Below, one piece after another: positions 16,834-41,392 of a stretch of 64,000 bases of DNA. The translations under genes were made by a program, and so were the position numbers. A model generated the notes under the pieces. That model searched no databases. It saw only the letters and a list, made by a program, of their open reading frames with translations, and was not told where the DNA came from. Source of the DNA: a virus; IMG/VR virus record IMGVR_UViG_3300045988_099631, positions 48,492 to 112,491 of that record. The stretch is one strand, 5' to 3'. Each line of letters starts with the position of its first letter. The first letter of the stretch is position 1.

Positions 16834-16861
16834 GGGACAAAACGCCGCGCGGCGGTAGATT
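16834..16861 (+). promoter_or_regulatory. cassette promoter copy 1
   Basis: GGGACA-16 nt-TAGATT, 31 nt upstream of ATG 16892. Confidence 0.55.
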
Positions 16862-16891
16862 AAAAAATAGAACGGCATGGAGGGTTTGAAA

Positions 16892-17509
16892 ATGGCGAAA
16901 ACATCAGCCGCGCAAATTAAAGCGGCGCAAAAATGGCAAGCGGCAAATGTGGATAGATTATCTTTAGTAGTTCCCAAGGGGCAGCGGGACGAGATCAAAA
17001 CGGCAGCGGCGGTGGCTGGTGAATCCGTCAACGCCTATATCATCGCGGCCATTCGGGCGCGGATGGGAAACGCGGACGGCGGCGCGGCTCCTGCGGCCGA
17101 GATCGTCCAGGCGGCGCAGCCGGTAGCAGAGGCGCAGCCGGGGCAGGTGCTCGACGGGGCCGCGCTGGAGTCGGCCAAGGTGGCAGCGGCGGCAGCCGGG
17201 GAGGATTTGCCCGCATTTGTGGCGCGGGCCGTCCGGCAGGCGGCGGACGCGGACGCGCGGGAGCGCCTGCTTGCGGTAGCGTGTAAAAATGCAAGTTTGC
17301 CGTCGTCAGCAGACGCAAGCGCGGCGGCTGAATCTTGCGAGACTTCCGCGTGTGATGTCGTGGACTGGGCCGCACGCACGGACCACCTGCGCGCGCTGCG
17401 AGAATCCGCCCGCGCGTCCGCTGGAATTCCAAGCCCTGAACAGACGGCTCCCGGAAATTCTGGGGACTTACCGCCTGAACAGGCAGGGTCGAAAACTCCG
17501 GGAGACTGA
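16892..17509 (+). CDS. Arc/CopG-type ribbon-helix-helix DNA-binding protein with Ala-rich tail
   Basis: ORF 16877..17509 trimmed to ATG 16892 after a GGAGGG SD. Contains LSLVVPKGQRDEIKTAAAVAGESVNAYIIAAIRARM. Confidence 0.7.
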   Translation: MAKTSAAQIKAAQKWQAANVDRLSLVVPKGQRDEIKTAAAVAGESVNAYIIAAIRARMGNADGGAAPAAEIVQAAQPVAEAQPGQVLDGAALESAKVAAAAAGEDLPAFVARAVRQAADADARERLLAVACKNASLPSSADASAAAESCETSACDVVDWAARTDHLRALRESARASAGIPSPEQTAPGNSGDLPPEQAGSKTPGD

Positions 17510-17594
17510 CGGCCTGAACAGGGACGCCGGAAAACTCTGGGGCTGATGGACGGACACCGAAAAAACTGAACAGAGTGCCCGGAAAACTTCGGGG
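17435..17594 (+). repeat. four degenerate tandem repeats (CCTGAACAG..CCGGAAAAYTCYGGGG), period about 39 bp
   Basis: Repeat starts at 17435, 17474, 17513 and 17565. The array straddles the stop of the RHH gene. Confidence 0.7.
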
Positions 17595-17598
17595 TATA

Positions 17599-17636
17599 GC
17601 AGCGCTTAGCGAAAGCCGGGCGCTGCTTTTTCTTTT
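17599..17636 (+). terminator. intrinsic terminator
   Basis: GCAGCGC-loop-GCGCTGC followed by TTTTTCTTTT. Confidence 0.6.
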
Positions 17637-17666
17637 GCGTTCTCCGAAAATTTTTTGCCGATGGCC

Positions 17667-17693
17667 GGGACAAATTGAAAAATCGCGTAGATA
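17667..17693 (+). promoter_or_regulatory. cassette promoter copy 2
   Basis: GGGACA-15-TAGATA, upstream of ATG 17748. Confidence 0.55.
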
Positions 17694-17747
17694 TAAAGAC
17701 AGAAAAAGCCGCGCACGAAGCGCGGCCAATGAAAAGGAGCGAACGAA

Positions 17748-18092
17748 ATGATTATTGATTTGATTCTCGACCGAGTAAACGGCAAGCCCTACGTCCCCGC
17801 CGACTTCTACCGTAGCGTTGCGGAGTATGGGACGGTCTTCCCGGAGATCGTCTTCCCCATCACGGCGGTGCTCGACGGCGGCGCAGAAGCCGACGTGCGG
17901 CGCGTCCTCTGCGAGTATATCAAGAAAAACGACTACAACCCGGAACTGTGCGGTTACGTCCGCAGCGTGAAGTGGCTGGAGCCTGACGCGCTGCCGTTGA
18001 ATCCGATCTGCGTTGACTGCAAACGACGCGGCGCGACCTGCGACGGTACGACTTGCCAATCGTGGACGGGCTGTGTTTACCGCAAAATATGA
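17748..18092 (+). CDS. hypothetical protein
   Basis: ORF in track, with its own cassette promoter and SD. Confidence 0.65.
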   Translation: MIIDLILDRVNGKPYVPADFYRSVAEYGTVFPEIVFPITAVLDGGAEADVRRVLCEYIKKNDYNPELCGYVRSVKWLEPDALPLNPICVDCKRRGATCDGTTCQSWTGCVYRKI

Positions 18093-38974: not shown

Positions 38975-39049
38975 GGGCCGTTAGCTCAACGGTAGAGCAA
39001 GCCGCTCATAACGGCTCGGTCGTAGGTTCGACACCTACACGGCCCACCA
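38975..39049 (+). tRNA. tRNA with CAU anticodon (elongator Met or Ile2-type), CCA encoded
   Basis: GGGCCGT/ACGGCCC acceptor (G1:C72, so not an initiator), D arm GCTC-AACGGT-AGAGC, anticodon stem AGCCG/CGGCT with loop CTCATAA, T arm GTAGG-TTCGACA-CCTAC. Confidence 0.9.
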
Positions 39050-39076
39050 TTCATTCTTGAGAAAGGAGGATTACAC

Positions 39077-39352
39077 ATGAACAAGGAAGAACTCGTTCAG
39101 GCAGTTTCCAGCATTACCAATATGCCGAAGAACGCCAGCCTTGAAGCTGTCGATGCTGTTTTTGAAGCGATTGAAGAATCTCTTATTTCGCACGAAGATG
39201 TCACTATCGCAGGCTTCGGTAAGTTTGTTGCGAAGTACCAGAAGGCCAGAGATGCGCGGAATCCGAAGACCGGTGAAAACATCAAGGTTCCAGCCCGTTT
39301 TTCGGTCAAATTCTCGCCGAGCAGCATTCTGAAAAACGCAGTTGCAAAGTAA
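39077..39352 (+). CDS. hup: HU/IHF-family DNA-binding protein
   Basis: MNKEELVQAVS...IAGFGKFVAKYQKARDARNPKTGENIKVPARFSVKFSPS is the classic HU signature. Confidence 0.9.
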   Translation: MNKEELVQAVSSITNMPKNASLEAVDAVFEAIEESLISHEDVTIAGFGKFVAKYQKARDARNPKTGENIKVPARFSVKFSPSSILKNAVAK

Positions 39353-39408
39353 TTCATGGGGCTTCACAGCCCCTATACATATAAAAAATACAGAAAGGAT
39401 ATACTTCT

Positions 39409-39954
39409 ATGCAGGATATAAGAATCCATCGGGGCGACATTTTCTGGGTTCGTCAGGACTATGCTGCTGTCGGTTCAGAAACGAGAAAGAATCGCCCAGC
39501 AATCATTGTCAGCAACGATAAGAACAATACATATTCCGAAACTGTAGAAATAGTTTATCTTACAACTGCCGAGAAAAAGCCGATGCCTACACACGTTTCC
39601 ATTGAAACGATGGGCAAGCAATCTACTGCGCTTTGTGAGGCTGTCTACACAGTTGACAAGGAACGTTTGGAAAACTATTTTTGCACGCTGACAGCTGACG
39701 AAATGAAACTTGTTGACCAGGCTGTTCTTGTCTCCCTAGGGCTTACCGCCACTCCGACCTGCATCGTAGGTGTATCCCAATCGTTGGAATCAGAAAAGGT
39801 ACGCGTTCCGCTCAACGAGCCATTCGGATTAGAAGACGCATATCGTGTGATTCAGAAGGAACGCGATACGTTGCTTGCACAGAAAGAAATCTATGAGAAG
39901 ATCTGCGCCGCTACGCTGCCGTGTTGGCCGAAGGAGGGTGAGTTGGGCGTATGA
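39409..39954 (+). CDS. MazF/PemK-family endoribonuclease toxin with a roughly 68-aa C-terminal extension
   Basis: RGDIFWV...GSETRKNRPAIIVSNDKNN...PTHVSI...ALCEAVYTVDKERL...ADEMKLVDQAVLVSLGL parallels B. subtilis EndoA. An extra C-terminal tail follows. No antitoxin ORF lies upstream. Confidence 0.8.
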   Translation: MQDIRIHRGDIFWVRQDYAAVGSETRKNRPAIIVSNDKNNTYSETVEIVYLTTAEKKPMPTHVSIETMGKQSTALCEAVYTVDKERLENYFCTLTADEMKLVDQAVLVSLGLTATPTCIVGVSQSLESEKVRVPLNEPFGLEDAYRVIQKERDTLLAQKEIYEKICAATLPCWPKEGELGV

Positions 39955-41051
39955 TTTATCTCGATCATGCTGCTACTTCGCCCCCACTTCAATGCGCAAA
40001 GATCGCCTTCAATGCAGCATCAACGGCAGCGTGGGGGAATCCAAACTCTTTACATTCTTTTGGGCAAAGTGCCAGAAATGCGTTGGAAGCTTCCCGTGAA
40101 GCTGTAGCGCAGTGCTTAAAGTGCGACTCAGATCAAGTGTTCTTCGTTTCCTCTGCAACAGAAGCTTGCAGGATTGCAATCACGAGAATGACGGAAGCAT
40201 GTAAAAAAATCTATGTAACGAAAATAGAACATGCAGCCGTAACCAGCATAACAGACCGCAAGGTATATAGTGACCGCCGGGATGGTAATCGTGGTTTCGT
40301 GCATATTCACACCAACAACGAAACCGGTGAAATCTATGATTTGAGAAGTGCCTTTTCAGGGTATGATTTGACGTTCTCCGACTGTACCGCAGCCATGGGG
40401 AAGCAAAAAATCAACTTCCGTGAAAGCGGAATAGACTTCATTTGCGGAGGTGGTCACAAGTTTGGTGCTCCGATTGGAATCGGCGTGTTGATCGCGCGAA
40501 ATCCGGAAGCAATCACAACGAATTTTCATTTTGGAACGCCTTCTGCTCCACTCGCAGCCGCATTTGCAGAAGCGTTAGTGTTCAGGACAGACCATATAGA
40601 AGAGTTCAAAAATGCAGCAGCCACCTTGCATGACCGCCTGATTGATGGTATCATGAACGAAGTACCGGACGCACAGCTTAATGGGCTGCTTTACAAGGGA
40701 AATGAAATCATGCAATCTCCGTACATTGCAAACGTTTCCTTCCCGAACATCGAGAACCACGCACTTGTCCTGCGTCTTGCGGCTGACGGATTGATGGTTT
40801 CATCCGGTGCGGCGTGTTCTAGCGGAGATAACGCCCCGTCCCGTGTGCTTCTCGCTTCCGGATATTCTGAGGAACGCGCACGTTCGGCCATCCGGTTCAG
40901 TTTCGATTACAAACTCGACCCGAATGCAAATGATATGGGCTATAACTGCGGGCTGAACCTCGAACGATATATCAAAATCGTTGATGACGCAGTAAAAATC
41001 GTGGCACGGAATGTGCGGGAAATGCGGGAAATCGTATCATGCAGAGGCTAA
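39951..41051 (+). CDS. class V aminotransferase-fold cysteine desulfurase (NifS/IscS/DndA-like)
   Basis: Contains LDHAATSP, GNPNSLHSFG, GGGHKFGAPIGIGVL (PLP Lys) and SSGAACSSGDNAPSRVL (catalytic Cys). It has a 4-nt overlap with the MazF-like gene. Confidence 0.85.
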   Translation: MIYLDHAATSPPLQCAKIAFNAASTAAWGNPNSLHSFGQSARNALEASREAVAQCLKCDSDQVFFVSSATEACRIAITRMTEACKKIYVTKIEHAAVTSITDRKVYSDRRDGNRGFVHIHTNNETGEIYDLRSAFSGYDLTFSDCTAAMGKQKINFRESGIDFICGGGHKFGAPIGIGVLIARNPEAITTNFHFGTPSAPLAAAFAEALVFRTDHIEEFKNAAATLHDRLIDGIMNEVPDAQLNGLLYKGNEIMQSPYIANVSFPNIENHALVLRLAADGLMVSSGAACSSGDNAPSRVLLASGYSEERARSAIRFSFDYKLDPNANDMGYNCGLNLERYIKIVDDAVKIVARNVREMREIVSCRG

Positions 41052-41064
41052 AATAGGAGGAGCT

Positions 41065-41346
41065 ATGAGAACAGAAGCAGAATACGCAGAGATTGAAAAA
41101 CTTGCCGGCAAAGAAACCGTAGAAGCATTAAAAGAGAGTGATGCGGAACGTGACGAAAAACTCAAAGAGATTCGCAGTTTGAAAGAAACTCTTCTCCAAA
41201 TGAACGCAGCAGATGTTGGCAACGCTTTTAAGCAGGTTCTTGCAGATGACTTGAACATTAGTCGTGATATAAGGCCACAATCTGATGCCGAACTGGACGC
41301 GCTCTGTGCAATTACAAAAATTCAGCTTCTTGAGCTTGAAACGTAA
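41065..41346 (+). CDS. hypothetical coiled-coil protein
   Basis: ORF 41011..41346 trimmed to ATG 41065 after a TAGGAGG SD. Confidence 0.6.
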   Translation: MRTEAEYAEIEKLAGKETVEALKESDAERDEKLKEIRSLKETLLQMNAADVGNAFKQVLADDLNISRDIRPQSDAELDALCAITKIQLLELET

Positions 41347-41365
41347 AAATATTTTTCATCTGCGC

Positions 41366-41392
41366 GGGACAAAACTGATTTCCCGGTAGAAT
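41366..41392 (+). promoter_or_regulatory. cassette promoter copy 14
   Basis: GGGACA-15-TAGAAT, upstream of ATG 41444. Confidence 0.55.

Follow-up and report, generated by a model that had tools for sequence, protein, structure and literature searches.

A repeated four-part cassette upstream of accessory genes in an uncultured gut phage, and a candidate phage-encoded ECF-like sigma factor that probably reads it

The window analysed here is a 64-kb stretch of IMG/VR record IMGVR_UViG_3300045988_099631 (positions 48,492 to 112,491), covering part of a phage genome only, and it carries on its + strand fourteen copies of an intergenic cassette built around the blocks GGGACA and GTAGA, which together precede ~27 rightward genes. 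We consider it probable, at roughly 80%, that these cassettes are promoters for the host core RNA polymerase carrying a phage sigma factor of the extracytoplasmic function (ECF) type, the predicted product of the leftward gene at 14523-15245. That a phage sigma factor can redirect the host polymerase is well known; what appears new is an unannotated family of ECF-like phage sigma factors whose promoter sequence is apparent from the genomes.

The pattern GGGACA-N14-17-GTAGA is matched exactly 13 times in the window, always on the + strand and from 16834 to 41366, against 0.04 matches expected from dinucleotide shuffles, and a 14th copy, at 20947, carries GTAGC in place of GTAGA. A position matrix, trained on 62 unique sites from related loci only (the window being excluded to avoid circularity), scores the 14 cassettes at 36.7-51.0 bits and the next-best independent site, at 30101, at 17.8 bits, the shuffle maximum being 12.3 bits (10 shuffles, both strands); the remaining matches of 12-20 bits are 1-2-nt offsets of the same 14 cassettes, and the - strand of the whole window holds zero sites of at least 12 bits. 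A first-pass annotation of this DNA had listed at least 14 rightward cassettes, and its coordinates hold, as do its expectation that the motif would stand out against shuffled controls and the opposite strand, and its statement that the leftward operons lack it, no copy being found on the - strand by pattern or by matrix. Two further variants had been proposed: that at 30101 (GTCACA) stands as a plausible degenerate copy beside fourteen certain ones, and that at 25896 was rejected, because its 12.1 bits are at the level of shuffled sequence and it also faces a convergent gene. The bipartite layout described at that time is right, although the gap between GGGACA and GTAGA measures 14 or 15 nt and not the 15-16 nt then given. 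Canonical TTGACA/TATAAT-type sites were recovered where they had been reported (24601, 24903-24875 on the - strand, 27404, and 16697-16669 on the - strand), and sigma-70-type sites, some of them perfect at 12/12, coexist with the cassettes in the array region according to a consensus scan. A megablast of 18 kb against the GenBank phage collection returned zero matches.

The anatomy of the cassette was derived from a pool of 86 unique sites, taken from the window and its relatives, and comprises four parts: an AAAWWTTTT block, GGGACAA, GTAGA, and a downstream block. Of the 86 sites, 45 have an N14 spacer and 41 an N15 spacer. Past GTAGA, at positions lying outside the search pattern, the 6th base is A in 86/86 sites, position +9 is a pyrimidine (T/C) and +10 a purine (A/G), each in 86/86, and the downstream block reads Y-R-K-A-A from +9 to +13, with bases 12-13 mostly AA. 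Such a third element had been described at a variable offset of 5-8 nt; its existence is borne out, but its place is fixed, at 9-13 nt past GTAGA. Among the 14 window copies it takes the form TGTAA or TGTAG six times, and TAGAA, CAGAA or TAGAG eight times. The base before GTAGA is G in 48/86 sites, and CGTA is found in only 3/14 window copies. The A/T block, absent from the earlier description and found after re-anchoring on GGGACA, lies 11-18 nt 5' of that hexamer and has an AT content of 0.75-0.98 against ~0.5 in the flanks (118 unique sites); with GGGACA at -35 it falls at about -53 to -46. In E. coli the UP-element consensus is AAAWWTWTTTT (PMC2425493), which the block resembles in position and approximate sequence.

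In 149/177 unique sites of the window and its relatives, the cassette is followed by a Shine-Dalgarno site, a start codon and an open reading frame of at least 30 codons, and the distance from GTAGA to the start codon has a median of 46 nt (10-90% range, 37-70 nt; 177 unique sites). In the window, the end of GTAGA lies 33-56 nt from the start codon in 13 copies and 85 nt from it at 27345 (31-84 nt had been given before). The cassettes thus have the arrangement of sigma-dependent promoters, with spaced blocks oriented with the genes and upstream of them, and with an UP-element-like A/T block inside the region of about -40 to -60. The two core blocks are unrelated to each other and their spacing flexes by 1 nt, which is more readily explained by two different domains reading the DNA than by a dimeric regulator.

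The gene proposed to encode the reading factor (14523..15245, - strand, 240 codons) was assigned by means of a family profile, Pfam and NCBIfam models, and AlphaFold and Foldseek comparisons. Pfam searches with the window protein itself return only a generic C-terminal helix-turn-helix, the matches to sigma region 4 and to ECF sigma factors being sub-threshold. Its homologues number in the hundreds among gut metagenome protein clusters, all of them unannotated ('hypothetical protein'), and an exhaustive search gave 170 clusters at 50% identity. A family alignment and profile of 52 members (22-45% identity) matches E. coli sigma-E (1or7; E 6.2e-7, profile positions 96-240 on residues 45-186) and CnrH (4cxf; E 6e-6, positions 80-240 on residues 26-183), as well as the sigma-E holoenzyme (6jbq), AlgU (6in7/8z6g) and, at 0.011, SigW, and these PDB matches span both sigma2 and sigma4. 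Pfam Sigma70_ECF is matched by 29/52 members and Sigma70_r4_2 by 26/52, and TIGR02937 is reached by members of the family at E 3.7e-9 (model positions 26-156), with a best score of 36.4 bits that lies below the 42.9-bit cut-off; the matches of family members to the ECF models of Pfam and NCBIfam are sub-threshold. The AlphaFold2 model (predicted local distance difference test score, pLDDT, 89.3) consists of two helical domains linked by a disordered stretch (163-172), and when it was used as a Foldseek query against the PDB, the top 17 matches, and 19/20 of the best, were ECF sigma factors, including M. tuberculosis SigH and SigL, sigma-E, AlgU and Bartonella RpoE, with probabilities mostly of 0.8-1.0 (0.97-1.00 for the top nine).

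The predicted protein is laid out as an optional N-terminal extension of ~45 residues, sigma2, a linker and sigma4, with a core of ~195 residues; as in ECF sigma factors, sigma2 and sigma4 are the only sigma domains, joined by a linker and with neither region 1.1 nor sigma3, the ~45-residue hairpin being an extra. By homology and predicted structure, the product of 14523-15245 is a divergent ECF-like sigma factor, although it is not filed in any named ECF group because it fails the curated thresholds. The first-pass annotation had singled out this product as a candidate dedicated phage factor, a proposal that gains from the family profile, the Pfam matches of its members, the Foldseek result, and the co-occurrence and lineage-linked change of the motif described below. 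No other polymerase- or sigma-like protein was found among the window proteins. As to the N-terminal helical hairpin, it is missing in many homologues, which start at about residue 44-51, and it gives weak sub-threshold matches to the anti-CRISPR AcrIIA3 (NF033948; E 2e-4, 21 vs 70 bits) and to phrog_8305.

The link between this protein and the cassettes can be followed in related contigs. Among 22 IMG/VR loci found through the sigma protein, 5-10 motif copies per 10 kb are present wherever the upstream flank sufficed, always on the strand opposite to the sigma gene, as in the window, and the pairing of array and sigma gene holds down to 63-65% protein identity. When IMG/VR was instead scanned with the motif pattern, 21 loci with at least 3 copies were obtained, all of them on similar contigs of 60-120 kb, and the sigma gene lay within the fetched piece in 9/21 of them, against 1/89 of the loci with at most one copy, which are chance matches in unrelated metagenomes. 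Array and sigma gene co-occur in dozens of gut viral contigs, and the conservation in related phages that the first-pass annotation had suggested checking is observed from both directions.

The motif also changes with lineage. In one sublineage, with sigma proteins at 77-78% identity (loci L011, L014 and L020), most copies read GCAGA and not GTAGA, including the sites orthologous to the window copies at 23408 and 27345, while GCAGA was found in 0 of ~100 sites of other lineages. At locus L026, which encodes a more distant homologue, P0129 (38% identical), small genes again lie opposite the sigma gene in a divergent arrangement like that of the window, but the block repeated there is GGTTCTAA-N15-17-GC, present in 4 copies against 0.03 expected. 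On the other hand, locus L019 and two contigs of Oscillospiraceae metagenome-assembled genomes (MAGs; L023 and L024), with 46-48% identity, keep GGGACAAA..GTAGA, so that specificity does not simply track identity. These two Oscillospiraceae MAG contigs are the only ones with sigma homologues (46-47% identity) that the search of the genome collection returned, and Oscillospiraceae are tentatively proposed as host. No GGGACA/GTAGA copy was found in the 39 kb of the unannotated fecal phage MT835520.1, whose 45%-identical homologue came from a protein search, and three viral scans with distant sigma homologues found nothing. Which residues would account for the GTAGA to GCAGA shift? Substitutions in the sigma proteins of the GCAGA lineage include T108A and T120A, flanking a loop (106-119) aligned to the specificity loop of ECF sigma factors; they were set aside as the cause, being only suggestive, since the L015 group varies there too and keeps GTAGA. 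A separate observation concerns the 46%-identical homologue P0124, which is preceded by three tandem (T/C)AGTTCTAAG(A/T) repeats (L028, 2790-2830; L029, 400-440) resembling the GGTTCTAA of L026; in that lineage they may serve for autoregulation or as an operator, and no repeated array was seen in L028.

Taken together, these data suggest the following course of events. The host holoenzyme would fire from the site at 16697-16669 (-) and thereby drive a six-gene leftward operon ending in the sigma gene, and the phage sigma factor would then bind the host core enzyme, as its homology predicts. Its sigma4 domain would read GGGACAA at about -35 and its sigma2 domain GTAGA at about -10, across the 14/15-nt spacer, while the C-terminal domains of the alpha subunits would contact AAAWWTTTT at about -53 to -46. 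To judge from this geometry, initiation would take place 6-10 nt past GTAGA, at the invariant A or at the Y-R step, and transcripts from each promoter would begin with a short leader of ~35-45 nt, rich in A, that carries a strong Shine-Dalgarno site. The ~27 rightward accessory genes expressed in this way would include those for an Ltp-type lipoprotein, a Rha/anti-repressor and ORFans (genes for proteins with no recognisable relatives), and the leftward replication-side and structural operons would remain outside the regulon.

Several points weigh against this assignment. The pairing of sigma factor and promoter relies on homology, co-occurrence and co-variation, and the window protein scores below curated cut-offs throughout (PF08281, 18.0 vs 25.7 bits; PF07638, 17.3 vs 21.1; TIGR02937, 17 vs 42.9), with no Sigma70_r2 match in it. 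Foldseek E-values are weak (7e-3 and above), which can be attributed to a different orientation of the two domains. The motif lacks the AAC of the -35 and the CGT of the -10 that mark ECF promoters (PMC5758882). GGGACA/TAGAWN shares 4-5/12 positions with TTGACA/TATAAT at sigma-70 spacing, and the consensus scan lists the copy at 18355 as a 9/12 sigma-70 match, so that some recognition by the host primary sigma factor is possible. No motif copy precedes the sigma operon, which is hence without autoregulation, and no recognisable anti-sigma factor is found among the five small open reading frames that share the operon; in addition, another specificity factor could lie in the part of the genome outside the window.

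Could the cassettes then be read by a host alternative or ECF sigma factor, or by the primary sigma factor together with a phage activator in the manner of T4 MotA/AsiA, the 240-residue protein doing something else? A promoter-like anatomy fits any sigma factor, GACA and TA.A are shared with TTGACA/TATAAT at a hexamer spacing of 16-17 nt, the sigma gene is not autoregulated as most ECF sigma genes are, and the retention of GGGACAAA..GTAGA by the 46-48%-identity relatives could reflect a shared host factor. We nonetheless regard this explanation as unlikely, given that motif arrays are found only on contigs with a sigma homologue, that the -10 block shifts inside a single phage sublineage, that the more distant homologue (L026) is paired with a different motif, that bases foreign to sigma-A promoters are strictly conserved (GGG, and the G at position 3 of the -10), and that none of the other window proteins was recognised as a regulator with two distinct domains for reading DNA. 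A sigma-H promoter (RnAGGAwWW-N11-12-RnnGAAT) was weighed and rejected, since the spacing is ~3 nt too long.

Readings in which the cassettes are not primarily promoters fare worse. Cluster A mycobacteriophages have stoperators, which are dozens of asymmetric, intergenic single repressor sites of 13-14 bp oriented with transcription. The many asymmetric intergenic copies seen here, all oriented with transcription, recall such binding sites of a phage regulator, and the window does encode helix-turn-helix and ribbon-helix-helix (RHH) proteins (the Arc-like 16892-17509 and Rha 27705-28547). Unlike stoperators, the cassettes are bipartite, with halves unrelated in sequence and a spacer varying by 1 nt, which misfits a dimeric regulator; they also have the UP-like block upstream, the Y-R step downstream and a narrow, fixed relation to the Shine-Dalgarno site and start codon, and the control region has a different repeat of its own (TATTACATATA, five copies), so that this reading seems very unlikely. 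It is slightly less likely still that the primary role is recombinational, the repeats being module-shuffling boundaries as in the T4 elements discussed below, or integron-like sites for the tyrosine recombinase at 33882-34970. In its favour, of 176 ends of homology blocks, 52 are no more than 40 nt away from a motif centre (6.5% expected), the motif can form an island of homology between unrelated flanks (L006, 18705-18848; L015, 23399-23487), and strong hairpins enclose 4/14 copies (20485, 21693, 23408 and 32014; z -3.4 to -5.8). The enrichment vanishes with an intergenic control, motif zones having 13.1 breakpoints per kb, the other intergenic DNA 12.6 and coding DNA 3.4; hairpins are weak in 2/14 copies and absent from 8/14, and neither an attC-like inverted-repeat structure nor a consensus fold is present. 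Recombination at conserved promoters would moreover be a by-product, compatible with promoter function. Least probable of all is that the conserved sequence acts as RNA, as a structured leader, a site of processing or a signal for antitermination: conservation does run at least 13 nt past GTAGA, into DNA that would be transcribed, but RNAalifold finds 0 conserved pairs, hence no common fold, in the 14 copies, Rfam finds three tRNAs only in the window, and most of the conserved blocks would lie upstream of any plausible start site.

How does the proposed system compare with known ones? ECF promoters have AAC in the -35, a CGT-type -10 and a spacer of 14-17 bp (PMC5758882). Like E. coli sigma-E (1OR7/6JBQ), AlgU, C. 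metallidurans CnrH and B. subtilis sigma-W, the phage protein would consist of sigma2 and sigma4, and its presumed promoters are bipartite, with a 14/15-nt spacer inside the ECF range, a G-rich '..AC' -35 and a short -10. Unlike ECF promoters, the phage -35 has GAC and not AAC, and its -10 is GTAGA and not of the CGT type; in this respect the resemblance to ECF promoters proposed in the first-pass annotation was overstated. The system further differs from known ECF systems in that the gene is phage-borne, with neither an autoregulatory copy nor a recognisable anti-sigma factor, and with the optional 45-residue extension. Among phage sigma factors, those of phiEco32 and 7-11 (PMC4331800), SPO1 gp28/gp34 and T4 gp55 (PMC9429907) also redirect the host core to conserved, low-copy promoters, as we infer here, and the sigma gene of the window, like those of phiEco32/7-11, is apparently transcribed first from a promoter of host-sigma type (PMC4331800). 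Those factors serve the expression of middle or late genes that infection requires (PMC9429907, PMC4331800), whereas the tail, lysis, structural and leftward replication-side genes of the window lack a cassette and small accessory genes are served; beyond the sigma-70 superfamily, there is no sequence relationship with the sigma factors of phiEco32, SPO1 or T4.

The promoter early stem-loop elements (PeSLs) of T4-type phages offer another comparison. Transcription from PeSLs relies on a sigma factor of the host itself, unlike the phage-encoded factor that we propose for the cassettes. PeSLs are composite motifs of a terminator and an early promoter (PMC4122927), and, as proposed for the cassettes, a conserved promoter, sometimes with a stem-loop, stands before single small open reading frames in a variable region (PMC2839356, PMC4122927). 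Gene content between copies likewise varies among close relatives, but breakpoints are not concentrated at the motif compared with other intergenic DNA, unlike what a PeSL-type mobile cassette would give. The provision of individual promoters to small genes, which had been called unusual, is thus not so, as T4-type PeSL cassettes do the same (PMC4122927).

Phage sigma factors are a classical case of host transcription reprogramming, although a few model phages account for nearly all the examples that have been studied. The mechanism proposed here is conventional, unless the conserved downstream block or the accessory-only regulon hides something new; the target set does appear unusual, with accessory rather than structural genes. 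For an abundant group of uncultured phages, the cassettes would provide a transcription map, and the pair of sigma factor and promoter, with its natural specificity variants, is a candidate for Firmicutes synthetic-biology toolkits. The family, common though it is in gut viromes, was missed by standard annotation, divergent sigma factors being hidden below curated cut-offs, which calls for caution in the use of such pipelines. A more ambitious version, possible but rather doubtful, would see here a sigma family widespread among human-gut viral contigs, with relatives in Oscillospiraceae MAGs, holding a private promoter code for a hypervariable accessory array (superinfection exclusion, anti-repressor, ORFans) and not for late genes, gated by an RHH protein and its operators, and using GTAGA, GCAGA or GGTTCTAA according to lineage. 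If this were true, the lineages would between them supply naturally orthogonal pairs of sigma factor and promoter. In this version, the TAGAA/TGTAA block just past the -10 might also be a second, sigma-dependent signal, for instance a promoter-proximal pause.

The sigma gene is the last of six genes in a leftward operon running from 16602 to 14523, in which it is preceded by five small genes (15343..16602, - strand; 121, 63, 76, 76 and 59 codons) identified from the layout of open reading frames, and the near-identical contig L025 has the same gene calls. None of these five has a Pfam match above threshold, and an anti-sigma factor of a novel type may be among them. The putative operon promoter, a sigma-70/sigma-A-type site (16669..16697, - strand; TTGAAA-17-TATAAT, 11/12 in the consensus scan), lies in a divergent control region of ~160 bp (16668..16829) that holds five operator-like copies of TATTACATATA by repeat count. 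In L001 another repeat, GGTAAACCATAT, occupies the equivalent region (7840-8080) in about five copies, and the first rightward gene of L001, Arc/RHH-like, differs in the N-terminus from window 16892-17509; operators and DNA-binding domain seem to co-vary as in a phage immunity module, and it may be speculated that such a regulator/operator module gates the sigma circuit.

The composition of this region also stands apart. The sigma operon has 60-62% GC, and the operon with its flank (14000-16700) has 57-62% GC and a reversed GC skew, most of the remaining window being at ~46-54%, which suggests that the sigma module was acquired from a higher-GC lineage; MT835520.1, the phage of a distant sigma homologue, has a GC-rich genome. 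Between the sigma stop codon and the next leftward gene, ~1.1 kb (13445-14520) contain no convincing open reading frame, in L025 as in the window, and within this gap lie an alternating CG/CA tract (14339-14380), short tandem repeats (2.8 copies of TGTTGGGGCGG, 14441-14471) and runs rich in G. The gap might serve as an origin or for packaging, or encode a non-coding RNA.

Of the 14 cassettes, all on the + strand, 8 serve one gene and 6 serve two to four. Cassette 1 (16816..16872, core 16834-16859, N15, 42.0 bits) precedes the 205-codon Arc/RHH-like gene 16892-17509, and is followed by cassettes 2 (17649..17704, core 17667-17691, N14, 48.4 bits; 114-codon gene), 3 (18337..18393, core 18355-18380, N15, 37.4 bits; 79-codon gene) and 4 (18793..18848, core 18811-18835, N14, 51.0 bits; 112-codon gene), the last with a + strand terminator just 5' of it (18770-18793). 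Cassette 5 (19452..19507, core 19470-19494, N14, 44.6 bits) precedes four small genes (19536-20468), cassette 6 (20467..20523, core 20485-20510, N15, 43.2 bits; hairpin z -5.8) a 121-codon gene, and cassette 7, the GTAGC copy (20929..20985, core 20947-20972, N15, 38.9 bits), a 220-codon gene. Next come cassette 8 (21675..21731, core 21693-21718, N15, 44.7 bits; hairpin z -3.4), upstream of genes of 68, 69 and 398 codons, cassette 9 (23390..23446, core 23408-23433, N15, 45.1 bits; hairpin z -4.2), upstream of genes of 195 and 76 codons, and cassette 10 (24912..24967, core 24930-24954, N14, 42.1 bits), upstream of the Ltp-type lipoprotein gene 24999-25766. Cassette 11 (27327..27383, core 27345-27370, N15, 44.2 bits) lies ahead of a 47-codon gene and the Rha/anti-repressor gene, with a + strand sigma-70-like site from the consensus scan 3' of it (27404-27432). 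Cassettes 12 (30845..30900, core 30863-30887, N14, 43.7 bits; genes of 59, 196 and 90 codons) and 13 (31996..32051, core 32014-32038, N14, 38.2 bits, hairpin z -3.8; 237-codon gene) are followed at a distance by cassette 14 (41348..41403, core 41366-41390, N14, 36.7 bits; genes of 114, 61 and 99 codons), whose unit is closed by a + strand terminator (42303-42334). Terminators on the + strand stand directly 5' of only 2 cassettes.

The recognisable products of the genes served are the Arc/RHH-like protein (16892-17509), DUF6900 and DUF3560 proteins, the Ltp-type superinfection-exclusion lipoprotein (24999-25766) and Rha/anti-repressor (27705-28547), the others being ORFans. No cassette was found in the leftward block at 1-13.4 kb (HNH, PAPS reductase, YopX and DUF551-type genes), in the leftward block at 42.3-64 kb (endolysin, tail proteins, tape measure and virion proteins), or, within the rightward region, in the segment at 32.8-41.3 kb. 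This motif-free segment (32800-41350) carries a tyrosine integrase (33882-34970), a MazF/PemK-like toxin (39409-39954), a class-V aminotransferase (39951-41051) and three tRNA genes (tRNA-Gly at 35285, tRNA-Gln at 37917, tRNA-Met at 38975), and may be a separately acquired island.

In several leaders the Shine-Dalgarno site is preceded by a common A-rich stretch, AAAACCAAGAAAA(C) (20520-20550, 20985-21010, 23445-23470), to be explained either by duplication of the leader or by a role as translational enhancer. Hairpins resembling - strand intrinsic terminators are seen at 20473-20508, 21690-21706, 17707-17727, 19407-19430 and 32797-32816, two of them enclosing the -35 block of a cassette, and they might stop antisense transcription from convergent leftward genes.

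The degenerate copy (GTCACAAA-N-GGTAGA..TGTAGAA; 30101..30138, + strand, 17.8 bits) precedes a 78-codon gene. A TnpB gene (IS605-family OrfB; 28877-29980) lies before it, with a structured 3' region that ends exactly at this copy, and CACAAAC is also present just before the TnpB element, at 28753; the putative 30101 promoter may owe its present -35 block to the insertion, which would have either modified an existing block or brought in its own. The sole sizeable leftward gene within the rightward array (25937-27277, - strand) encodes a fusion of a phage endonuclease I and a HIRAN domain; this gene and the Ltp gene converge on a bidirectional terminator (25774-25801).

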